NCBI GenBank assembly: GCA_965229645.1
Contig: OZ245893.1
Coordinates: forward strand, 1,465,383 to 1,529,382
DNA: 64,000 bases
Source of the DNA: Alphaproteobacteria bacterium
Lineage (GTDB): Bacteria; Pseudomonadota; Alphaproteobacteria; UBA7985
Reading direction: 5' to 3'
Below are positions 11,603 through 55,921 of this stretch, one piece after another. The notes under the pieces were generated by a model. It did no database searches. It was not told the origin of the DNA and worked only from the letters and a program-made list of their open reading frames with translations. How positions within the stretch are numbered: the stretch's first letter is position 1; every line of letters begins with the position of its first letter. Both the position numbers and the translations under genes were made by a program.

Positions 11603-11800
11603 CTAGTAACGTCGCCCGACCACTAGAGAAACGCCCATCGCTGTCCTCCATCATCCGAAAGGTTATATCAGCTCTTTGGCCTGGCAGCAGCTTACCATCT
11701 TCGTCAATTCGTGTGTTGTCTATGCCATATCTTGTCGCCGACTCTCCGTTGGCGGGATCGCGCCAATCGATTGCCAACATATCGTCTAGTATTGAGGGGT

Positions 11801-11980
11801 TTACAACTCGGCTCCCGAACGGTCAATCCAAGACTCGAATGAGTTTTGGAGCAGGACAGGAAGCTCCGCAATTACCACATCTGGGATCACATATGTGACG
11901 CCCTCTGTTGGGAGTCCCCTAAACCCCAACTGCCAAAAATCGCTTAACGCGCCTGCATCAAGATAAATTTCTCTTGCCAT
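11801..11980 (-). CDS. 59-aa hypothetical protein with a PIN-like/LDxGA N-terminal unit
   Basis: Below the track cutoff. ATG 11980 abuts the stop of the upstream ORF. MAREIYLDAGALSDFWQLGF..VIPDVVIAEL shows the same pattern as the 71-aa cassette protein. TAA at 11801. Confidence 0.35.
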   Translation of the reverse strand: MAREIYLDAGALSDFWQLGFRGLPTEGVTYVIPDVVIAELPVLLQNSFESWIDRSGAEL

Positions 11981-12202
11981 TTAACCTTCATCTTTCACAA
12001 AATCTTCGTTTCTTACTATGCATATCATTTCGCCCAAGGAAATTTCTGGATTTTCTCGCAAAGCCTTGTAAAGTAATGATTCAACTTTAACAAACACCGC
12101 ACTATGCATTAGCTGCTGCGCTTCATACTCTGTTTTGTAAAGCACGGACCTTTGTCGCTCATTCTCAATTAGAGCAATAGACCTTAATTCTTCATCTGAC
12201 AT
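11981..12202 (-). CDS. 73-aa hypothetical protein (antitoxin-like position)
   Basis: Track ORF, acidic and helical. Its stop TAA is immediately followed by the ATG of the 59-aa ORF. Confidence 0.4.
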   Translation of the reverse strand: MSDEELRSIALIENERQRSVLYKTEYEAQQLMHSAVFVKVESLLYKALRENPEISLGEMICIVRNEDFVKDEG

Positions 12203-12381: not shown

Positions 12382-12678
12382 CTAATTCCCTTGGTCAACC
12401 TGTAGGCCGTCAAGGGCTAACCCATATGTCGTTAGAATTATGGTAAAGTGAGCTCCTTGACCAGAGTCAGGATCGATATCCACACCATTAGCCAGTCTGT
12501 TTATTTTTGCGGCTTCTTGGAACCAAAAACGGTGATATGCATCCTTGGCCCTAAGAGCCAGGAGGTCATATGCCAGATATAAGTTCTGACCTGATTTATA
12601 TATAAACTCTATATAATCAAGGTCTTTTTGGGTTAGATTTGTAATACTCTTTTTTAGTCTCCTGAATTTACTTTCCAA
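12382..12678 (-). CDS. 98-aa hypothetical protein
   Basis: Track ORF (TTG start). Overlaps the 3' end of the upstream gene by 25 nt. No recognisable domain. Confidence 0.4.
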   Translation of the reverse strand: MESKFRRLKKSITNLTQKDLDYIEFIYKSGQNLYLAYDLLALRAKDAYHRFWFQEAAKINRLANGVDIDPDSGQGAHFTIILTTYGLALDGLQVDQGN

Positions 12679-13493
12679 CTGCTTGATAGAATAAAGACAT
12701 CTTCGACCATTCTATCCATTAACTGCCTTCGGCCCACTGTTGGATCAAATAAGGGGAAACTCAAAAAATAGGCAAAATCCTCCTCTGGCAACCACACCCA
12801 ACCACTACACCCACGACCCTCAGCGCATCGCAAATTCTGATGATACAAAATACTTAGAACAGAGTCTGTGGTGTAGGTTAGCGTCCCATAACGACGAAAC
12901 CGCTGAGCTACATCGCTGGACTCACTGTTGGGTAGCCCTGGCCACAGTATGTGAAATCGAACAATAAACTCATTGGATGCGGGCCGGGGCAAACCAGCTT
13001 CACAAAGTTGCGGCGCAGGCTCAAACTTAGTGTTACGTTCAACATATCTCCGAGAGGGATGCCAAAATGAAAATTCTTTTGATCCCAAATCTCTGGTTTG
13101 AATACTCGGATCATATAGCCCAGTTGCAATATTAAAACCTGTAAAGTGAGATATTTTGGCAGATCTAGCCAAATGTTCCATAGGATCGGCAGCATCTATA
13201 GGGGGATCTAAATACCATGGGTTAAAGTAACCGTAAGGAATTTCAAACCATACCCCCTTATACCAGTATGGCGATAAGACATCCAACCTAGGCCCTGGCC
13301 TAACAGGTTCATTGGTTACGCTAGTCAAATACTGAAAAGTACGTTCAATTCGAGGACTATCTTCTGATGCCCAGTCGGGACAAGGCTCAGAATACGCCAT
13401 GTTCAAAGCCAGTGCCGCGTTCAGTACACTAGCAGCAATCATCCTAATGATCCTGGACTGGATATGAAAATTAGTCTGCATCAAAATACACAA
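12654..13493 (-). CDS. Secreted hypothetical protein (cargo of cassette head a)
   Basis: 279-codon ORF with TTG at 13493 and ATG alternatives at 13481 and 13442. Signal-like segment MIAASVLNAALALNMAYS. The mature part is W/Y/P-rich with no recognisable domain. Confidence 0.55.
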   Translation of the reverse strand: MCILMQTNFHIQSRIIRMIAASVLNAALALNMAYSEPCPDWASEDSPRIERTFQYLTSVTNEPVRPGPRLDVLSPYWYKGVWFEIPYGYFNPWYLDPPIDAADPMEHLARSAKISHFTGFNIATGLYDPSIQTRDLGSKEFSFWHPSRRYVERNTKFEPAPQLCEAGLPRPASNEFIVRFHILWPGLPNSESSDVAQRFRRYGTLTYTTDSVLSILYHQNLRCAEGRGCSGWVWLPEEDFAYFLSFPLFDPTVGRRQLMDRMVEDVFILSSSWKVNSGD

Positions 13494-13671
13494 CCATCAA
13501 CTTCTTAGGACGGTTGTGCCCAAATCTCGAGGCCTGACTACACACTAGCCCTGCGACTTGCCGCATAAGAACGATGGGCCAACGCAACACGCTTCACCCA
13601 CTCCCTCGAGTGTTCTGAAACCTATTCATACGCCTAAGCGTAAACCTTCGACTGGTAAGGTCAACGACATT

Positions 13672-13701
13672 TGTGTAACAAGAGGCCTCAGCATAAGTCA
13701 A
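13672..13701 (-). promoter_or_regulatory. Cassette head box a (sigma70-like TTGACT-N18-TACACA)
   Basis: One of six copies of a conserved 30-nt box. About 75 nt downstream lie GGGAG and the GTG (13590) of the conserved VLRWPIVL start. Confidence 0.35.
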
Positions 13702-13877: not shown

Positions 13878-14205
13878 TCAAGTTAAGAAGTGGTTTTCAT
13901 TGCGGCTTGTCCATCGACTCAACGGCAAGGTTGATTGCCTGCAAATCTCGCTGGGTCTCACCGCTCCCCATAAGCTGACCATCCGTCCCAATGTCATCCA
14001 GATTAGTAGAATCTGTGCCAGCAGATGCAATGACAAGGAGGTTGTCCTTTCCTGGATGGAATGAGCGCCTTGTAAGGCCCGTTTCACCTGTAAAAATTCC
14101 GCGGAGGGGGAATAGGCAGTCCACCATCTTTGAATCTAGGTATGTTTCAGAATGCAAAGACTCACAGTCGCTGGAGACATTTGGGCTATCTTCATAGCAT
14201 CTCAT
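13878..14205 (-). pseudogene. Lipase_3-like fragment fused to the last codons of the T1SS domain
   Basis: The N-part (LLVIASAGTDSTNLDD..QRDLQAINLAVESM) ends before the GHSLGG elbow. It is joined to ...NENHFLT* (13878-13898). This is an internal-deletion derivative of 16187-16918. Confidence 0.7.
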
Positions 14206-14314: not shown

Positions 14315-14875
14315 TCACAACAGTTTCACCAATTCAAGTTCGTCTATTACTCCAATACGATCGGAATTTTCTATTACCCTCCAACTCCAATTTCCCTTGC
14401 GCTCATCTCCGAAATTAGGTGTGCGCCAAATTGAATTGCCATTTACATACACCGCAAATAGACCACTTAAGGTCGCCGTCTCCTGGAATATGGACGACTT
14501 TGAATTGAAACTAGGAAAAAGTGGAGGGAAAAAAAATGGATGAGGTCCTCTACGAGCTAAAGTGAATCTAGAATATCGTTCTGAACCAACTATGTCGTCT
14601 GAATCCACTCTAAAACATATCTGGTAAGGATAAATAGTTAAAAACTTCTTGATCCCACAATAATGATACCCAACACCTCGAGTTTCATAATCTTCCTGTG
14701 ACTTCTCTATCATCCAGTCAGTTTTTGCTAGCAATTCTTGGTCTAGTGTCCATGGAACAAAAATGTCTCTAGCTATCCAAGAAACAGCTTGGTCCCCTAT
14801 CGCCAAAGATGATAAGGTCAATCCCAAGATACGTCCCCAAGACCTTCTTTCCTGGTTAAACTCTATTGCGCTCAT
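14315..14875 (-). CDS. 186-aa single-pass membrane protein (cassette gene)
   Basis: N-terminal TM segment WGRILGLTLSSLAIGDQAVSWIA. ATGA overlap with the upstream gene. Paralogue at 16915-17475. Confidence 0.6.
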   Translation of the reverse strand: MSAIEFNQERRSWGRILGLTLSSLAIGDQAVSWIARDIFVPWTLDQELLAKTDWMIEKSQEDYETRGVGYHYCGIKKFLTIYPYQICFRVDSDDIVGSERYSRFTLARRGPHPFFFPPLFPSFNSKSSIFQETATLSGLFAVYVNGNSIWRTPNFGDERKGNWSWRVIENSDRIGVIDELELVKLL

Positions 14876-15087
14876 AGCAGCTCATCCAATTCAATTTGAG
14901 CTATACCTAATAACCCCACCATCTGATTATTGCCATAACTCTCAGGTTTAAAATCCCTCAATATTTCATCATAGACTTGTCGAGTTATTACAACTTTAGC
15001 GTCACCCAAAATTAGCATGTCAAGGCCACCTGGCGTCTGCATTACGCTATATGCAGCGCCTGTATCTAGAACATTAACTTGCGACAT
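14872..15087 (-). CDS. 71-aa protein equal to the stand-alone N-module (LDTGA module) of the 168-codon cassette gene
   Basis: VNVLDTGAAYSVMQTPGGLDML..VVITRQVYDEI..SYGNNQ aligns with GLVLDTGAAFSLVKTLGGLDIL..GVIIWQIYCEV..SYSENQ of 41127-41633. TAATG and ATGA couplings to the neighbouring genes. Confidence 0.55.
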   Translation of the reverse strand: MSQVNVLDTGAAYSVMQTPGGLDMLILGDAKVVITRQVYDEILRDFKPESYGNNQMVGLLGIAQIELDELL

Positions 15088-15533
15088 TATTCATCTCCTA
15101 CAACAGATGGATTCAGCATAATTTCGGCCTTTATCTTAACAAGATTCTTAGGAATAAGGCCAATGTATGTCTTATAGGCTAAGGAGTCGACTCCCTGAAG
15201 TGCAGATATTGTATCCCCCAAGTTATTGACTTCAGAATAATAGTTTTGAAAATTTCCTGTCTCTTCCAAGCATTCCCAGGGATACTCTTCGTCATCTATA
15301 GCTTCCATGTCGTTTTGACGAAGATAATTTTCTCTTTCGGTTCCTTTTCTTGCACAATCTAAGATATCTGGCTCATTGAGAACCCAAAAGAAATAGGGCA
15401 GAACATCATCAATATGCTTAGTAGCTCCTGCGCCATGCCACACTCGAATCTTGTATATTTCTTTATAGTGCGCTCGCCAATTTTTTGGCGGCTTAAATGC
15501 ACTTAAGCACTCTTCGTATGTATCAGGTAACAT
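15087..15533 (-). CDS. 148-aa acidic cytoplasmic protein (immunity-like partner of the 168-codon gene)
   Basis: Track ORF with AGGGGT upstream. It always lies directly after the 168-codon gene. Paralogues at 17579-18025 and 40660-41106, and a fragment at 36304-36414. Confidence 0.65.
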   Translation of the reverse strand: MLPDTYEECLSAFKPPKNWRAHYKEIYKIRVWHGAGATKHIDDVLPYFFWVLNEPDILDCARKGTERENYLRQNDMEAIDDEEYPWECLEETGNFQNYYSEVNNLGDTISALQGVDSLAYKTYIGLIPKNLVKIKAEIMLNPSVVGDE

Positions 15534-15553: not shown

Positions 15554-16060
15554 TCAATAAATCTGATAAGCCAGATCGGAATTCTCAAAAACAAATCCAG
15601 CCGAAGCACCAATAGCTTTTAAATTTCCTGGTCCACCATACTTCTCATGATCGGGTCAGTTCACCAAACCTCTATCATCCAAAACAATATTAATTGTATC
15701 GTTATTGCTTAAGCCAGATGCCTCTGGTTTGTTCACAACAATAGGTATAGATGTATCACCCAGCTGATTTCCAGATGCAAACATGTTATGGTGTGCTTGA
15801 GTCATGTCGAAACCTGAGTCGATAAAACTTGACGAATTGGAATCGCACCAATTCTTACGCCTAAGTTGATTATCACTATAACTTCCTGGCGACAAATCTT
15901 CCATGACTTCATGCTAAATCTACTGGGTTATTACAACTCTTGACCTACTAGTTGTCCGCATATCCGACCTGACCCAGGTCTTCTCTAAGCTAAATGCTGG
16001 GCCAGCATCCAAAACTAGCCTTGCATCTTCACGCATGAGAACAAAAGACCTACGCAGCAC
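15554..16060 (-). pseudogene. 168-codon cassette gene, copy 1 (nonsense-disrupted)
   Basis: Exactly 507 nt, like the intact copy. TAG at codons 47 and 49, and TGA replacing a Trp codon at 15656-15658. Track ORF 15656-15904 is its middle part. Confidence 0.75.
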
Positions 16061-16143: not shown

Positions 16144-16173
16144 TTTGTAACAAGAGACTTCAATATAAGTCAA
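16144..16173 (-). promoter_or_regulatory. Cassette head box b (TTGACT-N18-TACAAA)
   Basis: Same 30-nt box, starting 14 nt downstream of the stop of the 243-aa gene. AGGAG plus GTG 16060 follow. Confidence 0.35.
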
Positions 16174-16186
16174 AGAATTGAACACT

Positions 16187-16918
16187 TCAAGTTAAGAAGT
16201 GGTTTTCGTTGAGGCCGTGTCCCTTACCTAAAATACGGACTTGGAAGTCGCTGCCTTTGATCCATATCTCTGTCTCATCATTGGTCTCGGTGATGATCAG
16301 GTCGGCGAAGCTGACGCCCAGCTCTGATAGATCAATACGATCTTCTGCGCTGTCGAAGTCCCCGATAACGTCGATCCACTCAGCAATACTATCATCAAAC
16401 GACTCACCCAAACGTTGAGACACGACCTGGGACAGAAAGCCACCCAGAGAATGCCCTGTAATGACAATCTCAAGATCACTGCCTGCTCTACCATCTGCAG
16501 ACAGCATTTTCATGGACTCAACAGCAAAGTTGATTGCCTGCAAATCTTGCTGGGTCGCACCAAAGTTCCAAAGCTGGGCATCCGTCACAAGATCATCCAG
16601 ATCAGTGGGATCTGTGCCAGCAAATGCAATGACAAGGCGATTGTCATTTTCTGAATAGAAAGAGTGCCCTGTGAAACCCGTTCCACCTCTAAGCGCTCCA
16701 TAGGCGGGGAATAGCCAATCCATGTACTTTGAATCTAGGTCTGTATCAAAATGCAAAGATTCATAATCGGTAGAGACATTTTGGCTATTTGCGTAACGTC
16801 TCATATAATTATTTAGCTTCTTTTGAAACTCCACATCCGACTTTTCTTCGTAGGACAAATTCGCTAAGTCCGCGAACAAGCCATACTCTTCTGCACTATA
16901 TTTGTCAGGTTCGCTCAT
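16187..16918 (-). CDS. Chimeric protein: truncated class-3 lipase/alpha-beta hydrolase N-part fused to the T1SS C-terminal domain
   Basis: Residues 1-170 are Lipase_3-like with the elbow ITGHSLGG, but no downstream Asp/His region. By eye, residues 171-243 (16187-16393) are the same nucleotide sequence as 18679-18885, the 3' end of the giant gene. Confidence 0.75.
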   Translation of the reverse strand: MSEPDKYSAEEYGLFADLANLSYEEKSDVEFQKKLNNYMRRYANSQNVSTDYESLHFDTDLDSKYMDWLFPAYGALRGGTGFTGHSFYSENDNRLVIAFAGTDPTDLDDLVTDAQLWNFGATQQDLQAINFAVESMKMLSADGRAGSDLEIVITGHSLGGFLSQVVSQRLGESFDDSIAEWIDVIGDFDSAEDRIDLSELGVSFADLIITETNDETEIWIKGSDFQVRILGKGHGLNENHFLT

Positions 16919-17475
16919 AACAATTTCTCCAATTCAAGTTCATCTATTACCCTAATACGATCAGAATTTTCCATTACCCTCCAACTCCAATTTTCATTGC
17001 GCTCTTCTCCGAAATCAAGTGTGCGCCAAATTGAATTTCCATTTACATACACCGCAAATCGATCACTTAAGAGCGCCGTTTCCTGGAATATGGACGATCT
17101 TGAATTAAAACTAGGAAAAAGTGGAGGGAAAAAAAATGGATAAGGTCCCCTGTGAGCTAAAGTGTATCTGGAGTATCTTTCTGAGCCAACTATATCGTCC
17201 GAACTTGCTCTAAAACATATCTGATGAGGATAAATAATCAGAAATCTCTTGATTTCACAATAATAATACCTAAAATCACGAGCCTCATAATCTTCCTGTG
17301 ATTTCTCTATCATCCAATCAGCTTTTGCCAACACTTCTTGATTGAGCGTCCATGGAACAAAAATGTCTCGCGCTATCCAAGTAACAGCTTGGTCCGCTAT
17401 CGTCAAAAAAACTAGCGACAATCCCAAGATTTGCCCCCAAGGTCTTCTCCTTTGGTCAATTTCTATCATGCCCAT
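16915..17475 (-). CDS. 186-aa single-pass membrane protein, copy 2
   Basis: Paralogue of 14315-14875. ATGA overlaps with both neighbours. Confidence 0.6.
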   Translation of the reverse strand: MGMIEIDQRRRPWGQILGLSLVFLTIADQAVTWIARDIFVPWTLNQEVLAKADWMIEKSQEDYEARDFRYYYCEIKRFLIIYPHQICFRASSDDIVGSERYSRYTLAHRGPYPFFFPPLFPSFNSRSSIFQETALLSDRFAVYVNGNSIWRTLDFGEERNENWSWRVMENSDRIRVIDELELEKLL

Positions 17476-17579
17476 AGCAACTTGTCCATCTCAAGTTCAG
17501 CTATGATTGGAATCTCACCATCTGGCGTCTGCATTAAGCTATATGCAGCGCCTGTATCTAGAACATTAACTTGCGACAT
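17466..17579 (-). pseudogene. Internal-deletion (37-codon) version of the 71-aa gene
   Basis: MSQVNVLDTGAAYSLMQTPDGEIPIIAELEMDKLLWA*. Keeps the TAATG and ATGA couplings. Confidence 0.5.
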
Positions 17580-18025
17580 TATTCATCTCCTACAACAGAT
17601 GGATTCAGCATAATTCTGGCCCTTATCTTAGCAAGATTCTTAGGAATAAGGCCGATGTATGTCTTATAGGCTAAGGACTCGACTCCCTGAAGCGCAGATA
17701 TTGTATTGCCCAAGTTATTGACCTCAGAATAATAGTTTTGAAACCTTCCTGTCTCTTCCAAGCATTCCCAGGGATACTCTTCGTCATCTATAGGTTCCAT
17801 GTCGTTTTGACGAAGATAGTTTCCTCGTTCGGTTCCTTTTCTTGCACAATCTAAGATATCGGGTTCATTGAGAACCCAAAAGAAATAGGGTAGAACATCA
17901 TCAATATGCTTGGTAGTTTCTTCGCCACGCCACACTCGAATTCTATATATTTCTTCATAGTGCGCTCGCCAATTTTTTGGCGACTTAAAAGCACTTAAGC
18001 ACTCTTCGTATGTATCACATAACAT
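17579..18025 (-). CDS. 148-aa immunity-like protein, copy 2
   Basis: Paralogue of 15087-15533, roughly 90% aa identity by eye. Confidence 0.65.
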   Translation of the reverse strand: MLCDTYEECLSAFKSPKNWRAHYEEIYRIRVWRGEETTKHIDDVLPYFFWVLNEPDILDCARKGTERGNYLRQNDMEPIDDEEYPWECLEETGRFQNYYSEVNNLGNTISALQGVESLAYKTYIGLIPKNLAKIRARIMLNPSVVGDE

Positions 18026-18045: not shown

Positions 18046-18552
18046 TCAATAAATCTGATAAGCCAGATCGGAATTCTCAAAAACAAATCCAATCGAAGCA
18101 CCACTAGCTGTTAAGTTCCCTGGTCCGCCATACTTCTTATGATCGGGCCAGTTCACCAAACCTCTATCATCCGAAACAATATTGATTGTATCTGTAGTAC
18201 TTAAGCCAAATGCCTCTGGTTTTTTCACAACAATAGATATAGATGTATCGCCCAGCTGATTTCCAGATGCAAACCTGTTATGGTGCGCTTGATTTATGTC
18301 CAAATTTGAATCGATAACACTTGGCTAATTGGGGTCATACCAATTCTTAAGCCTAAGTTGATTATCACTATAATTTCCTGGCGACAAATCTTCCATGACT
18401 TCATACTAAATCTACTGGGTTATTACAACTCTTGACCCGCTAGCTGTCCACATATCCGACCTGACCCAGGCCTTCTCTAAGCTAAATGCTGGGCCAGCAT
18501 CCAAAACTAGCCTTGCATCTTCACGCATGAGAACAAAAGACCTACGCAGCAC
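18046..18552 (-). pseudogene. 168-codon cassette gene, copy 2 (nonsense-disrupted)
   Basis: 507 nt. TAG at codons 47 and 49, plus a third TAG (..WYDPN*PSVID..). Track ORF 18046-18303 is the remaining 3' part. Confidence 0.75.
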
Positions 18553-18635: not shown

Positions 18636-18665
18636 TTTGTAACAAGAAACTTCAGTATAAGTCAA
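18636..18665 (-). promoter_or_regulatory. Cassette head box c (TTGACT-N18-TACAAA)
   Basis: Same 30-nt box, 14 nt downstream of the giant gene stop. Confidence 0.35.
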
Positions 18666-36434: not shown

Positions 36435-36941
36435 TCAATAAATCTGATAAGCCAGATCGGAATTCTCAAAAATAAATCCAATCGAAGCACCACTAGCTGT
36501 TAAGTTCCCTGGTCCACCATACTTATAATGATCGGGCCAGTTCACCAGACCTCTATCATCCGAAACAATATTGATTGTATCTGTATTACTTAAGCCAAAT
36601 GCCTCTGGTTTTTTTACAATAATAGATATAGATGTATCGCCCAGCTGATTTCCAGATGCAAACCTGTTATGGTGTGCTTGAGTCATATCAAAACCTGGAT
36701 CGATAACACTTGACGAATTGGAATCACACCAATTCTTACGCCTAAGTTGATTATCACTATAATTTCCTGGCGACAAATCTTCCATGACTTCATACTAAGT
36801 CTACTGGGTTATTACAACTCTTGACCCACTAGTTGTCCGCATATCCAACCCGATCGGGATCTTCACCAAGCTAATTGCTGGGCCAGCATCTAAAACTAGC
36901 CTTGCATCTTCACGCATGAGACCAAAAGACCTACGCAGCAC
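36435..36941 (-). pseudogene. 168-codon cassette gene, copy 3 (two amber codons; 116-aa ORF intact from Met53)
   Basis: 507 nt with TAG at codons 47 and 49. Track ORF 36435-36785 is uninterrupted. Confidence 0.7.
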
Positions 36942-37000: not shown

Positions 37001-37357
37001 CTATCTGTTAGGGTCAATGGCATCTTTGTAACAAGAGACTTCAGCACAAGTCATGGCAATGTCTAAACCACTAGTTCGAATCCACAACCTAGCCCCTCCC
37101 GCACTAGGGAAGAGATCAATAAATTCATCTGAATTGTTTTTGAAGTGCTCCAATATCGCATCTTTCTCGGCCAGAGTATATGCGTTTATACCTGAAGCAT
37201 CTATTGGGCCACCCGCACCTGCAATTACTGACTGATCTACACCATTGTACAGCATCGTTGTGCCAGGCGGCCTACCAGAAAATGCACCATTTGCTATAGC
37301 TAACTCTAGGTCTTGTAGAGTATTTATTTGACTCCAATCTATAACGAAATTTTCCAA
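37001..37357 (-). CDS. Orphan paralogue of the giant-gene N-terminus (118 aa)
   Basis: TTG start with GGAGG 10 nt upstream. TTMLYNGV/NSMFYSGI, IDASGINAY/RDASGIYAN and DEFIDLF/AEYMDRA align with the reconstructed giant N-terminus. The 3' end runs into degenerate head box e (37025-37054). Confidence 0.55.
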   Translation of the reverse strand: MENFVIDWSQINTLQDLELAIANGAFSGRPPGTTMLYNGVDQSVIAGAGGPIDASGINAYTLAEKDAILEHFKNNSDEFIDLFPSAGGARLWIRTSGLDIAMTCAEVSCYKDAIDPNR

Positions 37358-38149: not shown

Positions 38150-38647
38150 CTAAGTTAAGAAGTGGTTTTCGTTGAGGCCGTGTCCCTTACTTAAAATACG
38201 GACTTGGAAGTCGCTGCCTTTGATCCATATCTCTGTCTCATCATTGGTCTCGGTGATGATCAGGTCGGCGAAGCTGACGCCCAGCTCTGATAGATCGATA
38301 CGATCTTCTGCGCTGTCGAAATCCCCAATAACGTCGATCCACTCAGCAATACTATCGTCAAGGGCATTAAACTTGAACGTATCTGCGCCCGCGCCACCGT
38401 AAAGAAGATCTGCGCCCGCGCCCCCAATCAGCAAATCGTTGCTGTCGCCGCCGAAGAGCTGGTCGGCGCCCAGGCCACCATAGAGCTCGTCCGCCCCTTG
38501 ATCACCATGGAGAATATCATTCTTGGTGCCGCCATTTAAGGTATCATTGCCCTCGCCACCACGAAGCAAGTCTTTGCCTGCATCGCCATGGAGAAGGTCA
38601 TCCTCTGCGCCGCCGTCCAGCATGTCTTCGCCGTGGCCACCTTTGAG
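38150..38647 (-). pseudogene. Orphan 3' fragment of the giant RTX gene (last 166 codons incl. T1SS domain)
   Basis: Near-identical to 18679-19176, with two aa differences seen. The 5' side is cut by IS1380. Confidence 0.85.
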
Positions 38648-40470
38648 CCTGCCTTATTCATGAAGATGGCAAATTTTGGAACGAGATCGGGTTTAGGCGG
38701 GGTTTTGAGGCAGGATGCGTTGGAGATTTTGAGCATCGAACGATTTGTTGAGGGCCCTGGGGGCACTACGGCGTAAATTTGGGAACAGGATCGAGTATCT
38801 GGGGTGTTTTTTGCTTCTTTGGCGCAGAGGTGATGGGTCGCCAGATCATCGAGGAGGGCGGCAAGGTTTTCAGGACAGTCTATTTTGCGCTCTGATTTTA
38901 TGGTGGTGGCCATGCCATGCGGTTGATGGCTGGCCATATCAGGCTCCAAAAGTGCTGTGCACTTTGGGCAACGATTAGGATTGCGCGGCGAGCATGGATG
39001 GTTATGCGGGCGCCGATTGAGAGCACGCGTTCACGATAGCGGCGCAAGCTCCAGCCAGTGCGCGTAGCGGTTTCCATACACCGTCGACCAGCGTGCATCA
39101 GACCATAAGCCAGCAGATTGAGTAACAGAAGGGCTTCGTTACGGGCGAAGGCCTCAGCCTCAGCCTTGGTCTCAACCTCAGCCTTGGTCTCAGCCTCAGC
39201 TTCGGGCTTGGATGGGGAGGACGGGGAGGAGCCTTTGGTGTCCTTCCTGGTCCGCACTGTCGATGACAGGGTCGGGCCCAGCACGTCCATCAACTCACCG
39301 AAGCTGTTTTCGGCTGCGCCACGTTTGCGGTAAAGCGCCAGCAGGTCCTGGGCAGGCATATGATCTTGTGTGAAGTTGGTGATCAGCCAGAAGCGATCCA
39401 GCAACAACTGGCCTGGCCGCTCGACGACAACCAGAACAACCCGCCGCGCCTTCGACCATGGCCCCGCCTGATAATCCATCTCGTGAAACTGCTCCCCGCC
39501 ATCTTCTGGTGGGCATCCTTCTGGACGATTCATATTTGGGGCCGCTAGTCGGTCTAGGACTGAGTTGCTGCCTAGCCGCGCCACGTAGGAGATGCCGCGC
39601 TCCTCAAGTCCGCCCAGCACCTTCTCACACGGAAAGCCCGCATCCATGCGCACCGTCGCTACCTGACACAGCTTCGTCTTCGCCCGATCAATCAGCTCCA
39701 GAATGAAGCTGAGCGCTCCGTCGGCGGTGTGGACACTGCCCTTGCGAAGCCGTGCGTCCAGCAAATCTCCAGTCTCGGCAATGCCAGCAATGATCGGGTG
39801 ATACATGCGTTGACGATAGTGCCCGTTCCAAGCTGAACCAGGCTGCTTGCCATGCACCTCGATGGGCAGACTGTCCACATCAAGGGTCAGATATCGAGGG
39901 CGGTGTCCCCGACGCTCGGCCCGCAGGCGACGGCCAGTCAGTTCCATCACGCTCTCGCGTAAGACCTGAAGGTTGGATTCGCTGGAGAGCAAATCAAGCA
40001 ACCGCGACAAGGTAGGTTGCGAGGGCAGATGGCGCTCTTGGTCCAGAGGCGTCGTGCTGCGCCTGCACGAAGTTGACAGCCGAAACGCCGGATCATAGCG
40101 TAGCGCATCAGCATCGTCTTGATCTCGCCAACCCTGACCCAAAAGCAGAACCCTCGTTCGCAAGAGTTCAGGCAAAGAGTAGATCACCTGGTGGGGACAG
40201 CGCGTATCCTCAAGCCGAGCCATCAGCCACGAGATGATACCTGAGCGCTCCATCAACTCGCGCTGCACAATGGCACCGCCGTCTCCGCTCAGATGCTCGG
40301 CCCGGCTCTCAACAGAAAGACTCCGGTTGAATGATGTTGTGAATAGAGGTAGTGTTTCACCCATGGCGTGGCTCGGTCCTGTTTATCGCGTCTATCGCTA
40401 AAGACTTGATTCTACAGTGTTTTCCGCGTCACGCCATACAAATCAACCGATCAGACGCGAATAAGAGGGG
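38648..40470 (-). mobile_element. IS1380-family insertion sequence
   Basis: 1823 bp. IRs cctgccttattc / cccctcttattc (rc). 5-bp duplication TTGAG at 38643-38647 and 40471-40475. High G+C, unlike its surroundings. Confidence 0.8.
38898..40364 (-). CDS. IS1380-family DDE transposase
   Basis: 488 aa. The overall pattern matches the IS1380/IS4-like group (VRMDAGF, RGAAENSFGELM). Confidence 0.8.
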   Translation of the reverse strand: MGETLPLFTTSFNRSLSVESRAEHLSGDGGAIVQRELMERSGIISWLMARLEDTRCPHQVIYSLPELLRTRVLLLGQGWRDQDDADALRYDPAFRLSTSCRRSTTPLDQERHLPSQPTLSRLLDLLSSESNLQVLRESVMELTGRRLRAERRGHRPRYLTLDVDSLPIEVHGKQPGSAWNGHYRQRMYHPIIAGIAETGDLLDARLRKGSVHTADGALSFILELIDRAKTKLCQVATVRMDAGFPCEKVLGGLEERGISYVARLGSNSVLDRLAAPNMNRPEGCPPEDGGEQFHEMDYQAGPWSKARRVVLVVVERPGQLLLDRFWLITNFTQDHMPAQDLLALYRKRGAAENSFGELMDVLGPTLSSTVRTRKDTKGSSPSSPSKPEAEAETKAEVETKAEAEAFARNEALLLLNLLAYGLMHAGRRCMETATRTGWSLRRYRERVLSIGARITIHARRAILIVAQSAQHFWSLIWPAINRMAWPPP

Positions 40471-40475
40471 TTGAG

Positions 40476-40660
40476 GGTATCTGCACCGTGCTGACCACAA
40501 ATCTGGTCGTTTCCCCGACCACCGCCAATGATGTCACCATTGGTGCCGCCATCAATATAGTCATCGCCAGCACCACCGTCGAGCAAATCGGTTCAAGGCC
40601 ACCTGGCGTCTGCATTAAACTATATTCAGCGCCTGTATCTAGAACATTAACTTGCGACAT
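40476..40660 (-). pseudogene. RTX-repeat fragment fused out of frame to the first 23 codons of a 71-aa-type gene
   Basis: 40476-40590 continues the orphan RTX fragment across the IS. At ~40590 it joins MSQVNVLDTGAEYSLMQTPGGLE (ATG 40660). Confidence 0.65.
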
Positions 40661-41106
40661 TATTCATCTCCTACAACAGATGTATTCAGCATAATTCTGG
40701 CCCTTATCTTAACAAGATTCTTAGGAATAAGGCCAATGTATGTCTTATAGGCTAAGGAGTCGACTCCCTGAAGCGCAGATATTGTATTGCCCAAGTTATT
40801 GACTTCAGAATAATAGTTTTGAAAATTTCCTGTCTCTCGTAAGCATTCCCAGGGGTATTCTTCGTCGTCTATAGGTTCCATGTCGTTTTGACGAAGATAA
40901 TTATCTCGCTCGGTTCCTTTTCTTGCACAATCTAAGATGTCTGGCTCATTGAGAGCCCAAAAGAAATAGGGTAGAACATCATCAATGTGCTTGGTAGTTT
41001 CTTCGCCACACCACACTCGAATTCTATATATTTCTTTATAGTGCGCTCGCCAATTTTTTGGCGGCTTAAAAGCACTTAAGCACTCTTCGTATGTATCAGG
41101 TAACAT
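40660..41106 (-). CDS. 148-aa immunity-like protein, copy 4
   Basis: Paralogue of 15087-15533. Follows the only intact 168-codon gene. Confidence 0.65.
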   Translation of the reverse strand: MLPDTYEECLSAFKPPKNWRAHYKEIYRIRVWCGEETTKHIDDVLPYFFWALNEPDILDCARKGTERDNYLRQNDMEPIDDEEYPWECLRETGNFQNYYSEVNNLGNTISALQGVDSLAYKTYIGLIPKNLVKIRARIMLNTSVVGDE

Positions 41107-41126: not shown

Positions 41127-41633
41127 TCAATAAATCTGATAAGCCAGATCGGAATTCTCAAAAACAAATCCAATCGAAGCGCCACCAGTTTGTAAATTTC
41201 CTGGTCCACCATACTTCTGATGAACGAGCCAGGTCACCAAACCTCTATCATTCGAAACAATATTGATTGTATCTGTATTACTTAAGCTAAATGCCTCTGG
41301 CTTTTTCACAACAATAGATATAGATGTATCGCCCAGTTGATTTCCAGATGCAAACCTGTTATGGTTTGCTTGAGTCATGTCGAAACCTGCGTCGATAAAA
41401 CTTGACGAATTGGGGTCATAACAATTCCTAAATCTAAGTTGATTCTCACTATAACTTCCCGAAACCGAATCCTCCATGACTTCACAGTAAATCTGCCAGA
41501 TGATTACACCTCCGGACCCACCAGATGTCAGTATATCCAACCCGCCAAGGGTTTTCACTAAGCTAAACGCCGCACCAGTATCCAAAACGAGTCCTGCTTC
41601 TTGGGGCTTGAGAACGATGGGCCAACGCAACAC
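41127..41633 (-). CDS. 168-aa cassette protein, only uninterrupted copy (candidate small toxin/effector)
   Basis: GTG 41633 with AGGAG upstream. The N-module is VLDTGAAFSLVKTLGGLDIL..GGVIIWQIYCEV. The C-part is ANHNRFASGNQLGDTS..GGPGNL..IGFVFENSDLAYQIY. No family I can name. Confidence 0.6.
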   Translation of the reverse strand: MLRWPIVLKPQEAGLVLDTGAAFSLVKTLGGLDILTSGGSGGVIIWQIYCEVMEDSVSGSYSENQLRFRNCYDPNSSSFIDAGFDMTQANHNRFASGNQLGDTSISIVVKKPEAFSLSNTDTINIVSNDRGLVTWLVHQKYGGPGNLQTGGASIGFVFENSDLAYQIY

Positions 41634-41715
41634 GGTTCACCCACTCCTCTGAGCGTCTTGAAACCTCTTCATTCACCAATTGCGTAAGATCCTAACTGGT
41701 GAAGTCAACGACATT

Positions 41716-41745
41716 TTTGTAACGGGAAACCTCAGCATAAGTCAA
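41716..41745 (-). promoter_or_regulatory. Cassette head box f (TTGACT-N18-TACAAA)
   Basis: rc = ttgacttatgctgaggtttcccgttacaaa, about 80 nt upstream of GTG 41633. Confidence 0.35.
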
Positions 41746-42100
41746 AGAATTGAGAACTGGTTATAAATGGAGGATCTGTTTCGGGCGCATAGCACCATAG
41801 ACCTACCTCATAGTTGGTTCATTTTTCTGACTTCCTTTGTGTTCGCTCAATTTTTTTTGGTTATGTATGTATCATACGAACTCTAAAAGTCCTCAGAAAG
41901 CAACTTCGATAGTTTTACTGCTTCCCTGGAATCAGATTATCTGTTTTTGAGTAACTTGTTTTAGAAAGAACCATGACATAACAAAGATATCTATAGTGAT
42001 AGTCAACTGCAGAAACCGCCAGTTACCCTTGTTTTGGGGATCTGACATATCAAGGTGCTTCGTGCGAGGCGCCGACAAAGAGATCGTAAAATCAACCACC

Positions 42101-42487
42101 TATACCAACGGTCATAAAAGTTGACACTTTAATGACCGTTTCATGTCTGGCGATAGAAGTGCTTCTTGTTTCGGTTTTTTGGGTGGCGGTGTCACCTCGC
42201 TCGCTATGCTCGCTCAGCCCGACCGCTGAACGGGGCCTTCGCTGATACCCCGAGGCGCTTTCTTAGCTTGTCTTGGGGCCACGCATTTGGAGCGCGGGCG
42301 TTCCCTGCGCCCTTCGGGCTTGGAGCCCAACTGTTTGGAGCGCGGGCGTTCCCTGCGCCCTTCGGGCTTGGAGCCCAACTGTTTGGAGCGCGGGCGTTCC
42401 CTGCGCCCTTCGGGCTTGGAGCCCGCTTGGGGGTCGCGGCCCTTGTGCCAGCGATCATACGCGCCCTTCTCAATCGCCGCTGGCATT
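42101..42487 (+). repeat. RE repeat, long variant, at the right island junction
   Basis: Head hairpin tataccaacggtcataaaagt-tgac-actttaatgaccgtt at 42101. Tail gccagcg...cgctggc ends at 42487. Contains the 48-bp tandem array. Confidence 0.75.
42286..42424 (+). repeat. 48-bp tandem repeat x2.9 inside RE
   Basis: The unit tttggagcgcgggcgttccctgcgcccttcgggcttggagcccaactg is repeated head to tail with no differences seen. Confidence 0.9.
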
Positions 42488-42663
42488 GAGCGAGCTTTGG
42501 TCTTGGGTCGCGCGGATAAGTTCGCAAACCGCTAGTCCTTTGCAATGAAGCGCCCTATAGCGGGGCCAAGTTGGATCGGCCCCACGGGCCATCCACACCA
42601 ACCATAAGGACTTAAAGCCATTCAACCACATCAATATAACCGCGAGTGGCCTTGAAGGAACCT

Positions 42664-51692: not shown

Positions 51693-52903
51693 CCGCAGTC
51701 CTGCGCGATTTCAACGCATGGGTAGAGCTAGAGGACCGACGCCTGCCCACCACGACCTTTTCAGAACGGCTCAACCGTTTCAACTGGCCGCTGCTCGCAC
51801 TCGTCTTAGCCGTATCTGGCGTAGGCCTCTTCAACCAATACGTCGTTGGGCAAACCACGCCGAACAATTTTTTTTGGGAGCATCTGCTGCACATGGTCGT
51901 CGGCCTTGTGGCGTTCGTATTTGTCTCACTGATCGACGTGCGGTTGCTGCGCCAACTGGCGTTCCTGGGGGCGGTGGTCGCCCTCATTTTGTTGCTGATC
52001 GTGCAGAACTTTGGGTTGGAGTTCAACCAATCGACCCGCTGGATGCGCGTCGGCAGCTTTACTTTGCAGCCCTCAGAGATCGCCCAAGTTGCCTTGGTCG
52101 TCTATCTGGCCTCCTACCTAGAAAACCGCAGTCATGAGCAGTTGGGCAATCCGCTTTGGTTGATCCCCCCTGCCCTTATCATCGGGTCCATGGCCTATCT
52201 GATTTTCGAGCAACCCGATTTGGGCACCACGCTGAAGCTGCTGCTGCTGATGGGGCTCATGATCCTGTGTTCGGGCATTCGCTGGTGGTTTGTCATTCTG
52301 ATCGGCCTCCTGATCGTGGGTTTGGGCGCGGTTCTGATCCGTTGGCCCGATCAATTCTTGAAACCCTACCAGATCGATCGATTGACCTGCTTTGTCTTGG
52401 ACGATTCGGAAATTGAACTCCTGGCCGATGCCTCCCCTTGCGACCAACCCCGCCAAGCGCGCATTGCGATCGGCGGCGCTGGGATCTGGGGCCATGGGCC
52501 GCTGGAGGCCCCGCAGCTACAATCGCTGATCATCTACGAACCCTACAACGACATGATTTTGGCCGTCCATGCCGAACAATTTGGCCTTGCTGGGACCTTG
52601 GCCTTGCTGGCCCTAATCGCGACCCTTGTTCTGTTCGGGTTTGGCGTTGCCGTGTCGTGCAGGGCGCAATTTACCCGGTTTCTCGCGCTCGGCGCCGCGA
52701 TCAATTTTGGGCTCTACGCCACCATCAATTTTATGATGGTGCTCTCACTCTTGCCCGTCGTCGGCATGCCGCTCGCGCTCTTGTCAAAGGGCGGGACCGT
52801 GACCGTCATCGTTTGGGCCTCGTTCGGCCTCATCAACAGCGCCTGGATCAACCGCCACCTGACCTTGGAAACCGACGATCAAAACTTGTACCAACGGCCC
52901 TAA
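51689..52903 (+). CDS. rodA: Rod shape-determining protein RodA (SEDS family)
   Basis: 404 aa, polytopic, FtsW/RodA style. 4-nt overlap with mrdA. Confidence 0.9.
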   Translation: MTAVLRDFNAWVELEDRRLPTTTFSERLNRFNWPLLALVLAVSGVGLFNQYVVGQTTPNNFFWEHLLHMVVGLVAFVFVSLIDVRLLRQLAFLGAVVALILLLIVQNFGLEFNQSTRWMRVGSFTLQPSEIAQVALVVYLASYLENRSHEQLGNPLWLIPPALIIGSMAYLIFEQPDLGTTLKLLLLMGLMILCSGIRWWFVILIGLLIVGLGAVLIRWPDQFLKPYQIDRLTCFVLDDSEIELLADASPCDQPRQARIAIGGAGIWGHGPLEAPQLQSLIIYEPYNDMILAVHAEQFGLAGTLALLALIATLVLFGFGVAVSCRAQFTRFLALGAAINFGLYATINFMMVLSLLPVVGMPLALLSKGGTVTVIVWASFGLINSAWINRHLTLETDDQNLYQRP

Positions 52904-53085
52904 AAATTGACATTTTTAGGACCGTTTTGTGTCTCGCGGCAGAAACGCTTCGCGTTTCGCCTCCGACGGGGCCTCCGCTTATACCCCGAGGCGCTTTCGC
53001 GCTATTCTCGGGGCCGCTACGGGGGCCGCGGTCGCGGCCCTTATACCAGCGAACATAAGAGTCATTCCAGGTCGCCGCTGGTATA
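52891..53085 (+). repeat. RE repeat copy between the convergent rodA and kdsB genes
   Basis: The head overlaps the last 4 rodA codons. The tail hairpin encodes the last ~7 kdsB codons on the other strand. Confidence 0.8.
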
Positions 53086-53895
53086 ATCGCGGCCCAAGCC
53101 TTGCAAGGCTTGGTTCACCACGGCCACATCTTCAGGATTGTTGACCTCCCAAAACACCTGGTCGCCCGCATCGACTTCGACACACTTTAGGGCCATGTCG
53201 TGTTCCAAGAACCGCAACTGCTCCAACCCCTCGATTTGTTCTAAGGGGCTGGGGGCCAAACGAACGTAGGTATCGAGCGCGCTCTTGCGGTAGGCATAGA
53301 GGCCAACGTGGTGAAATACGGGCAACGGGGTGCGCGCCTGCGGATCGAGGTGATCGGCGAAGGGCAGAACTTCCTTAGAGAAGTAGAGCGCGCGTCCCGT
53401 CTTGGAGGCCACCAGCGTGGTCCCACCGACCAGCCCGCGCGCGCGCTGGTCGCGCAAGCGAGCCAGCGTGGTAGCATGGCACCGCAGCGCGGGGGTCGCG
53501 ACCAAGCAGTCGGGATCGCCCGCCATGGCCTCAATCAGGGCCGTGACGAAGTGCGCGGGCGTCAAAGGCGCATCGCCTTGAAAATTGACGACCAGGTCTT
53601 GGCTACGCAAACCCAAGCGCTCTGCGGCTTGCTGCACCCGCTCGGTCCCATTGCGGCAGGCCGCGTCGGTCAGAATCGCCTGCGCCCCAAAGTCTTGGGC
53701 CGTATCGGCGATACGCGCATCGTCGGTGGCGATCCAGACGTGCGCAGTTGGCACGGCGCGAAGGGCCGCTTGGTAGGTCCACCAAATCAGGGGCGCCTGC
53801 GTGCCATCGGGCCCTTCCAGATCCGCGGTCAGAGGCTTGCCCTCAAACCGTGAGGACGCCCAGCGGGCGGGAATGATCAGGGTCGCGGAGGTCAT
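53062..53895 (-). CDS. kdsB: 3-deoxy-manno-octulosonate cytidylyltransferase
   Basis: 277 aa. IIPARWASSRFEGKPL N-terminal motif. Confidence 0.9.
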   Translation of the reverse strand: MTSATLIIPARWASSRFEGKPLTADLEGPDGTQAPLIWWTYQAALRAVPTAHVWIATDDARIADTAQDFGAQAILTDAACRNGTERVQQAAERLGLRSQDLVVNFQGDAPLTPAHFVTALIEAMAGDPDCLVATPALRCHATTLARLRDQRARGLVGGTTLVASKTGRALYFSKEVLPFADHLDPQARTPLPVFHHVGLYAYRKSALDTYVRLAPSPLEQIEGLEQLRFLEHDMALKCVEVDAGDQVFWEVNNPEDVAVVNQALQGLGRDYTSGDLE

Positions 53896-53956: not shown

Positions 53957-54193
53957 TTATACCAGCGACGACTTAGAAGGGCTCTTATGTTCGCTGGTAT
54001 AGGGCCGCGACTGCGGCCCCCGTAGCGGCCCCGAGACAAGCTAAGAAAGCGCCTCGGGGTAAAGCGAAGGTCCCGTCCTGCGGTCGGGCTGAGCGAGCGG
54101 TGCGAGCGAGTAGAGACCGCAACCCAAAACAGGCGAAACGCAAAGCGTTTCTGCCGTGAGACACAAAAAAGTGTCAACTTTTTTGGCCGTTGG
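53957..54193 (-). repeat. RE repeat, long variant, reverse orientation
   Basis: Reverse complement of the RE core. Carries the extra segment also present in the copy at 42101. Confidence 0.75.
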
Positions 54194-55646: not shown

Positions 55647-55680
55647 GAGACTCCCGTCCTTCCAATCAAACCGTAGGGCT

Positions 55681-55921
55681 TATACCAACGGCAAAAAAAA
55701 GTTGACACTTTTTTGGCCGTTTTGTGTCTCACGGCAGAAACGCTTCGCGTTTCGCCTCCGACAGGGCCTTCGCTTATACCCCGAGGCGCTTTCGCGCTAT
55801 TCTCGGGGCTGCTGCGGGGGCCGCAGTCGCGGCCCTTATACCAGCGATCATTAGAGTCACTCTGGGTCGCCGCTGGTATTATACCAGCGATCAAAAGCGT
55901 CATTCTCAGTCGCCGCTGATA
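55681..55921 (+). repeat. RE repeat copy with duplicated tail hairpin
   Basis: tataccaacggcaaaaaaaagt-tgac-acttttttggccgtt head. Two tandem ataccagcga...cgctg tails. Abuts the choline sulfatase stop. Confidence 0.8.

Follow-up and report, generated by a model that had tools for sequence, protein, structure and literature searches.

We examined a 64,000-nucleotide (nt) stretch of contig OZ245893.1 (hereafter, the window), in which one head sequence, made up of a 30-nt box, a leader, a ribosome-binding motif and a GTG start, recurs six times on the minus strand. The original prediction held that these heads (a to f) drive different cargos and encode a conserved N-terminal module (N-module) of ~50 amino acids (aa) marked by the motif LDTGA. 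We consider it probable that the six heads are diverged 5' copies (promoter, leader and first 16-77 codons) of one rare PIN-like gene, belonging to a decaying, amplified toxin-antitoxin-like module in a foreign island, and that their stumps now stand before other genes.

Under this reading, the heads, which fall into four lineages (a, d, f and b/c/e), would be the paralogous 5' ends of one small operon, each with a sigma-70-type promoter candidate, an unstructured leader of ~70 nt, AGGAG followed by GTG, and the first 16-77 codons of the PIN-like gene. This gene and a partner of 148-170 aa would form a two-gene module that recurs beside RTX toxin genes and that may have been amplified, within a low-GC island rich in insertion sequences (IS), by segmental duplication and unequal homologous recombination. 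Decay would then have set in among most of the PIN-like copies, with the partner genes kept under purifying selection; in a and d, rearrangement would have left a promoter-bearing stump before unrelated genes, which the stump may now drive.

What looked like a constant head with swapped cargo is ordinary gene-family decay, through amplification and recombination, with one odd recombination hotspot; it is not a new targeting or modular-fusion mechanism. The novelty here is confined to a rare PIN-like family that lacks annotation, together with its partner, and to a possible recombination hotspot. A rare family with a conserved partner and a recurrent RTX link is a candidate toxin-antitoxin or toxin-immunity pair of uncultured alphaproteobacteria, and the window offers an apparent example of promoter-bearing 5' gene stumps spreading through a decaying island to positions before unrelated genes.

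A promoter-like box and a conserved translation start

The box, TTGACT-N18-TACAAA, occurs where the original prediction placed it, at 13672, 16144, 18636, 32321, 37025 and 41716: six copies, all on the minus strand, compared with 0.18 expected by chance and with none of 100 shuffles reaching six. Two copies carry one mismatch each, box a (13672..13701), whose second hexamer reads TACACA, and box e (37025..37054), which begins ATGACT. Boxes b (16144..16173) and c (18636..18665) both lie 14 nt after the stop codon of an RTX gene, a 243-aa lipase-like gene with an RTX tail for b and a 2224-aa RTX gene for c. The box pattern search also gave box d (32321..32350) and box f (41716..41745), a putative promoter with TTGACT-N18-TACAAA in full. 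Downstream of every box come a leader of ~70 nt, GGAG and GTG(T/C)TGCGT, in that order, as had been described. The VLRWPIVL protein start attributed to all six is encoded in a and f only; b, c and e read VLRRSF(V/G)L and d reads VLR*PSVL.

The heads form four sequence lineages (a, d, f and b/c/e) with 70-76% mutual identity, copies b, c and e being closely related. Across these lineages, 21 of the 30 columns of the box are invariant as opposed to 19 of 67 (28%) in the leader (Fisher p = 2.7e-4), with nine of nine invariant in TTGACTTAT and seven of nine in TGTTACAAA. The region from the Shine-Dalgarno (SD) sequence to the start keeps 16 of 28 columns, again more than the leader (Fisher p = 0.01). 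Because the hexamers and the start region are conserved and the leader is not, the pattern is that of a promoter with a translation-initiation region and not that of a structured RNA. The head repeat is real and probably regulatory, and its sequence makes the box a candidate sigma-70-type promoter. Of the proposed regulatory or targeting role, the regulatory half, as promoter and translation start, fits this conservation; targeting is unsupported.

Three observations at the box count against this assignment. The 18-nt spacer ends in TGT in five copies, and the exception is copy f, the sole intact gene copy, which lacks the TG of an extended -10; a consensus sigma-70 scan omits the box; and substitutions in the box accrue between strains at approximately the background rate. 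The scan passes over the box because its second hexamer ends in A and not T. A T at -7 is present in merely 30-43% of the promoters analysed in three alphaproteobacteria (PMC7703639), which softens this absence. It is rather improbable that the box is something other than a promoter, whether a regulator binding site, part of the 3' end of the upstream gene, or the slowest-decaying patch of a duplicated segment without present function. In favour of such a box, the -10 hexamer lacks its final T, the boxes of b and c sit just after a hairpin as well as behind RTX stop codons, and orthologous copies have gained -35, -10 and SD mutations. Yet conservation peaks precisely in the two hexamers, which are properly spaced and stand at a suitable distance from a conserved SD and start; the six copies are oriented alike with respect to a downstream gene; and the upstream contexts of a, d and f are quite unlike those of b and c. 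The box was also considered as a transposon end or miniature inverted-repeat transposable element and rejected, as its six copies share one orientation and have no inverted partner.

We also weighed whether the head works at the RNA level and not through protein, be it as a structured cis-regulatory leader, as a small RNA or as an antitoxin of the antisense/type I or the type III kind. Nucleotide conservation does persist in the untranslatable copies b, c, d and e, and among b, c and e the head is more alike than the body. Against these two points, no Rfam family matches the head, the leader is its least conserved part, and the consensus fold is weak (-12.7 kcal/mol, in a fold that includes the promoter). 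Single-sequence folds have non-significant z-scores of -2.0 to +0.9, positive in four of the six heads, and are no more stable than shuffled sequences. A structured cis-regulatory RNA of the Rfam type was rejected on these results, and an RNA function of any kind is most unlikely. The tRNA search found no tRNA.

Decaying copies, stumps and coincident junctions

The 168-codon gene said to follow four of the heads is present as four collinear copies (b, c, e and f), of which only f is open. This intact PIN-like gene (41127..41633, minus strand) begins with a GTG 10 nt after AGGAG and carries D18, E51, D101 and D128 as candidate catalytic residues. Its three relatives on the same strand keep the frame of f and have in common TAG stops at codons 47 and 49. 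Copies b (15554..16060) and c (18046..18552) have one additional stop each and are pseudogenes with three stops, and copy e (36435..36941), with the two in-frame TAG stops, retains an open C-terminal part of 116 aa. The full extent of head f (41401..41900, minus strand) covers ~150 nt of upstream sequence, box, leader and codons 1-77; it is homologous to head d, with 76% identity to 32008-32505, and its upstream part is also common to head a.

Heads a and d stand before unrelated genes. The stump of head d (32009..32240, minus strand) covers codons 1-77 with three in-frame stops. Homology to f ends at codon 77, and the 228-aa open reading frame (ORF) behind it (31282..31968, minus strand; probable ATG at 31953; no known family) starts ~40 nt later in another frame, so that head d is not fused to this gene as had been supposed. 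The stump of head a (13471..13590, minus strand) is a 39-codon ORF of which only codons 1-16 are homologous to the other heads, and its stop overlaps the ATG of the next gene. That gene, a 279-aa ORF with a signal-peptide-like N-terminus (12654..13493, minus strand; probable ATG at 13481; no known family), is therefore not, in the window, the secreted cargo of an in-frame fusion. In five of the six heads the N-module is interrupted by stops or cut to 16 codons. The supposed fusions to diverse C-termini are, in the window, rearrangement stumps and not in-frame fusions.

The lone exception is found at 8442-8800 of L001, a contig of a related strain, which lacks 76 nt present in the window. Through this deletion, the 16 codons that begin head a run on in frame into the signal-peptide-like N-terminus of the 279-aa gene. 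This fusion copy has a nonsense mutation further on.

Comparison of f with b, c and e reveals a mosaic. From the box to about codon 71, 68 fixed differences fall in 312 columns, compared with 13 in the next 411, and windowed identity climbs from ~70% to 90-95%, indicating that head and body have different histories. The idea of modular recombination holds insofar as the head recombines as a unit and, in a and d, sits before unrelated genes; the window contains no in-frame swapping of modules. Further, the ratio of non-synonymous to synonymous substitution rates (dN/dS) among b, c and e is 1.4-2.0 in the N-module and 0.4-0.7 in the C-terminal part, compared with 0.25-0.35 in the partner gene and 0.23 in a neighbouring 186-aa gene. 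This contrast indicates that the PIN-like copies are decaying and the partners are maintained. The N-module itself evolves neutrally among these copies, contrary to the purifying selection expected of it.

The heads share some features with putative mobile promoters, a class that requires 80% identity or more across 50 nt or more of upstream sequence, before genes whose coding sequences are not paralogous (Matus-Garcia, Nijveen and van Passel 2012; PMC3575422). As in that class, similar upstream sequences stand before unrelated genes (the 279-aa, 228-aa and PIN-like genes) in an IS-rich setting. Unlike that class, the similarity in the window extends into the coding region as paralogous 5' stumps, which that study excluded, and lineages a, d and f are 73-76% identical, below its 80%.

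Near codon 77 several junctions coincide. An inverted repeat, GAATTGG-N7-CCAATTC, spans codons 70-76 of copy f (41407..41427, minus strand) and recurs at 15834, 18326, 32014 and 36715; it is confined to heads b-f, with five matches against 0.32 expected. Three rearrangements end at its 3' foot. The homology of head d ends after CCAATTCGT; in P0004, encoded on the related contig L088, an in-frame deletion of 84 nt starts directly after CCAATTCGTC; and the mosaic boundary between f and b/c/e falls within the same 55 nt as these two junctions. We favour slippage or recombination promoted by a hairpin at the inverted repeat, which may have been the point of breakage.

The same evidence could point to a dedicated exchange platform, in which a recombinase would use the inverted repeat to swap gene bodies behind a constant promoter and N-terminus, as a cassette system for an RTX-linked toxin/immunity array. 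Three independent junctions at the foot of one 7-bp repeat are what such a platform would produce, and were the repeat a genuine recombination site, this RTX-associated toxin/immunity locus would have built-in reshuffling of its content between strains. However, no inverted repeat was found at the far end of any cargo, and the scanned ORFs of the island include IS transposases and no tyrosine or serine recombinase. Head a has its junction elsewhere, at codon 16, and a second PIN-like paralogue ends near the equivalent of codon 66. Further, the repeat lies inside the coding sequence for a conserved NW.D.NS stretch, and the resulting 'products' are mostly pseudogenes. We regard such a platform as decidedly unlikely next to hairpin-promoted rearrangement of a decaying gene family. 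An integron, with its integrase and a recombination site ending each cassette, is likewise poorly matched, with no tyrosine recombinase among the scanned island ORFs and the inverted repeat found only inside five heads. As for a diversity-generating retroelement, no reverse transcriptase was found among the scanned ORFs, in a check that did not extend to substitution patterns.

Variable bodies behind a conserved 5' region also occur in multigene families, among them polymorphic toxins with orphan modules, such as contact-dependent inhibition (CDI) and Rhs systems, and the vlp/vsp genes of mycoplasmas. The heads resemble these in their conserved 5' segment, sharp homology boundary, variable downstream parts and copy-number change between strains. 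Unlike in these families, the constant part is only 16-77 codons long and lies inside the catalytic fold itself, as predicted below, and most variants are non-coding. Further, the bodies behind a and d are out of frame, and no secretion domain or demarcation motif of the CDI/Rhs kind was found in the window's heads.

A divergent PIN-like family and its partner gene

Searches of Pfam, NCBIfam, PADLOC and PDB sequences returned nothing for the 168-, 148-, 186-, 71-, 228- and 279-aa proteins; for the 168-aa protein this includes Pfam at E ≤ 1. A word-indexed search of 5.8 billion proteins found no relatives of the 168- and 148-aa proteins beyond near-identical copies in one European Nucleotide Archive (ENA) sample. 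An exhaustive profile search of 1.84 billion representative proteins found 10 proteins. Four of these, P0007 (297 aa), P0008 (549 aa), P0010 (182 aa) and P0011 (286 aa), match profile positions 8-153, N- and C-terminal parts together. A hidden Markov model (HMM) built only from P0007, P0010 and P0011 matches residues 17-160 of the window's 168-aa ORF (E = 2e-13) as well as a 71-aa ORF in cassette b (E = 1e-8). Because the model of distant homologues spans residues 17-160, the 168-aa ORF is one domain of ~150 aa, and the N-module is its first third.

Several lines of evidence point to a PIN-like fold. At their N-termini, four homologues match PF20698 and one of them also PF16289 (E 0.001-0.06). 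An AlphaFold2 model built on an alignment that includes the homologues (A5) has a predicted local distance difference test (pLDDT) score of 63, a predicted template-modelling score (pTM) of 0.62 and the order b-a-a-b-a-a-b-a-a-b-a-b-a; an earlier model on a shallow alignment was unusable (pLDDT 28). Among the best Foldseek matches in the PDB, 12 of 13 are PIN-domain proteins or PIN-bearing exosome chains, including SMG6/EST1A; the exosome chain is one that we take to be Rrp44. VapC, AF0591 and PAE2754 follow after the top matches. The best E-value is 9.5e-4, the top matches range to 0.018, and TM scores are 0.44-0.5; the best match in a viral library is also a PIN protein. The model has the three-layer alpha/beta/alpha arrangement with a parallel central sheet of the PIN-like superfamily, at moderate confidence only.

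The family shares the motifs VLDTGAA, VVITxQVxxE, QxGDxSI and IVSDDxDL. D18, E51, D101 and D128 align with invariant or conserved family columns and lie at strand ends or helix starts in the model, and by these motifs two of the four acidic residues expected, D18 and E51, fall within the N-module. The 'LDTGA N-module' is predicted to be the N-terminal part of a PIN-like fold, from strand 1 through the third helix. Taken together, the motifs, the weak Pfam matches and the predicted fold lead us to read the 168-aa protein, with moderate confidence, as a divergent PIN-like putative metal-dependent nuclease.

Known PIN nucleases (VapC, the PIN domains of SMG6 and Rrp44, PF20698 PIN-TPR-GreABC and PF16289 PIN_12) are like the window family in several respects: PIN domains are the best structural matches of its predicted alpha/beta fold; an acidic residue ends strand 1 (LDTGA), with a glutamate ~33 residues on and then GDxS and SDD motifs; and the size of ~150 aa and the pairing with a small adjacent gene agree. 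Unlike them, the window family lies below Pfam thresholds, has a long insert between the second and third acidic motifs, is paired with a partner of 148-170 aa that has no known antitoxin DNA-binding domain, carries Gly-rich hydrophobic C-terminal extensions in several homologues, and is extremely rare (10 in 1.84 billion). Two other identities were considered for the N-terminus. A retropepsin, suggested by the DTGA motif, was rejected because the predicted fold is alpha/beta and PIN-like, with the aspartate closing its first strand. A double-glycine leader (TLGG, SGGSGG) was rejected because consensus positions misfit by eye and the scanned ORFs hold no peptidase-transporter.

These results bear on the proposal that the N-module of ~50 aa acts on its own as a regulatory, leader or targeting peptide carried on diverse cargo. 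The free-standing 71-aa homologue, the in-frame fusion of head a's 16 codons to a signal-peptide-bearing cargo in L001, and the C-terminal extensions that differ among distant homologues beyond the whole domain, several of them Gly-rich and hydrophobic, could each be expected of such a peptide. However, the N- and C-terminal parts always occur together in the distant homologues and match as one unit, and the N-terminal part contains half of the PIN-like core, including its first two acidic residues. Stops interrupt it in b, c, d and e, its dN/dS is neutral, and the 71-aa ORF looks internally deleted. Nor did the exhaustive search give any N-part-only protein joined to another recognised domain, as would be expected of a module fused elsewhere to other C-termini; the short N-part-only ORFs that do occur (P0009, P0012 and P0013) have unrelated tails. 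The proposal is already largely refuted, and we give it hardly any chance beside an N-module that is simply the first third of a PIN-like domain.

Two further proteins were met in these searches. P0006 (2854 aa) matches profile positions 71-117 in eight stretches (E = 5e-13), which could reflect either composition or a repeated segment that resembles the mid-part of the PIN-like family. In L090 (689-5107), P0008, with its PIN-like N-terminus and long Lys-rich and Gly-rich hydrophobic C-terminus, and its partner lie directly upstream of Mu-type DNA-circulation/baseplate genes, in the slot where a tape-measure protein is expected.

A partner gene, of 150-169 aa, stands directly upstream of the PIN-like homologue in five of five distant loci, overlapping it by 4 nt in L084. 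The distant partners are related to the 148-aa protein of the window (BLASTP E = 4e-4; hhalign E = 4.5e-5), and an HMM of them, run against the six-frame translation of the window, matches its three 148-aa ORFs only. These are copies f (40660..41106), c (17579..18025) and b (15087..15533), all on the minus strand; of partner e there remains a 5' fragment (36308..36414, minus strand), cut by the IS at 35111-36307. Each 148-aa gene follows the 168-aa gene at a distance of 20 nt and abuts the start of a second PIN-like paralogue. In cassette b this paralogue is the 71-aa ORF (14872..15087, minus strand), an N-terminal part with a short tail, IELDELL; cassettes c and f hold remnants only, that of f beginning MSQVNVLDTGA and joined after ~22 codons to an RTX fragment of repeat family D19 (40454..40663, minus strand).

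The kinship claimed for the 71-aa ORF is borne out (49% identity to the N-terminal part of copy f over 51 aa, E = 3e-14). Its tail resembles the C-terminus of both the 186-aa family and P0004, a likeness that suggests that the ORF is probably an internally deleted gene. The 186-aa gene (14315..14875, minus strand; second copy 16915-17475) encodes a separate domain, and P0004 is a PIN-like C-terminal part fused to such a domain (BLASTP of the 186-aa protein against P0004, E = 3e-15). A further PIN-like paralogue was considered for the 186-aa protein and rejected, as its residues 47-186 match the C-terminal half of P0004 and it has no PIN-like profile match. The 59-aa ORF (11801-11980), also put forward as a relative, is an unproven member: it found no match by BLASTP or hmmsearch, and hhalign against the family gave E = 6e-4 at a probability of 29%.

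Around this last ORF, at 11517-12202, there may be a third, heavily degraded pair of partner and PIN-like gene, made up of ORFs that are 73, 59 and 87 aa long. The hints, by eye, are NPEI in the 73-aa ORF, YLDAGA...VIAEL in the 59-aa ORF and GQRADITF in the 87-aa ORF, and the sole statistical support is the hhalign result for the 59-aa ORF.

RTX-related genes recur near two of the distant pairs, with an RTX-like gene upstream in L086 and HlyC, an RTX-toxin acyltransferase, upstream in L089. The PIN-like gene and its partner are most likely, by analogy, a toxin with its antitoxin or immunity protein. Type II toxin-antitoxin systems and orphan immunity genes are likewise two-gene modules with tight or overlapping junctions, multicopy in mobile islands, and here too toxin-like genes are inactivated, partner genes intact, and RTX or HlyC genes nearby. 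As in VapBC systems, the small gene lies directly upstream of, or overlaps, the toxin-like gene in the distant loci; no antitoxin DNA-binding domain of the RHH, AbrB, HTH or Phd kind was found in the partners by Pfam, NCBIfam or PADLOC. The window's order of PIN-like gene, partner and second PIN-like gene is also unlike type II systems, and the partner shows no relationship to the antitoxin or immunity families known so far.

Several of these findings weigh against a toxin-antitoxin-like PIN module. The 168-aa protein matches no annotated family or PDB sequence; the PF20698 and PF16289 matches of its homologues reach 13-20 bits, below the curated cut-offs of 27.8 and 32; and the confidence of the model is only moderate, with marginal structural E-values. 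The partner in the window follows the 168-aa gene, though it precedes the second paralogue, and the partners have no recognisable DNA-binding domain in the databases searched. Finally, the PIN-like family is so rare that counts of co-occurrence stay small.

The low-GC island and related strain contigs

The window comes from an uncultured alphaproteobacterium whose LeuA has a best identity of 62-69% to that of any species-representative genome. Host DNA has ~60% GC, as opposed to 41-55% at window positions 10-42 kb, and this stretch is a foreign, transposon-ridden island in a 60% GC host. Its IS elements include IS66, IS110, IS5-like elements, a 488-aa DDE transposase and two inverted copies, 97% identical, of an IS with a 366-aa DDE transposase (29923-31119 and 35111-36307). 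Its RTX content comprises proteins of 2224 and 1158 aa, the 243-aa lipase-like protein and a 157-aa RTX fragment.

In three further contigs of ENA sample ERZ25074195 (L001, L082 and L088), the flanking genes for LeuA and polyprenyl synthase are ~99% identical to those of the window. The number of full-length cassettes is one in L001, two in L082, at least three in L088 and four in the window, in flanks that diverge by ~1%, documenting rapid copy-number change between co-occurring strains. The PIN-like gene (copy f) of the single cassette in L001 is interrupted by an IS, and one cassette of L088 has a novel body (P0004). Among the 90 loci examined, the box is present only in these related strain contigs of the window; its pattern had no match in species-representative genomes, and patterns of the PIN-like family had none in genome or metagenome contig collections.

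The 97%-identical IS pair brackets ~4 kb in a layout like that of a composite transposon, with head d, its 228-aa ORF, an rve integrase fragment and IS66 genes in between. The same IS type splits the PIN-like gene of L001.

An RTX-type C-terminal tail of ~70 aa (...NENHFLT) is common to three different proteins at 97-98% nucleotide identity: the 2224-aa RTX giant, the 243-aa lipase-like protein and the 157-aa fragment. It lies at 16187-16398, 18679-18890 (extending to 19173) and 38150-38644, with a pseudogene at 13878-14087. As a constant, secretion-signal-like tail with varied passengers, it is arguably the island's clearest modular swap. The 1158-aa RTX-repeat protein (26441-29917) has a weak match to Hint, an intein/hedgehog-type domain, at residues 446-489 (E = 2.5e-5, below the cut-off).

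In the 60%-GC host DNA, a repeat of ~200 nt occurs in four to five copies, at 328-531, 42101-42491, 52885-53089 and 55679-55927 and, inverted, at 53957-54193. One copy lies exactly at the right edge of the island, so that the repeat may be a small mobile element or a hotspot for insertions. Beside this edge, at 42286-42424, stands a perfect 48-nt tandem repeat (91 nt with 100% identity at offset 48), which on one strand consists of FGARAFPAPFGLGAQL repeated.

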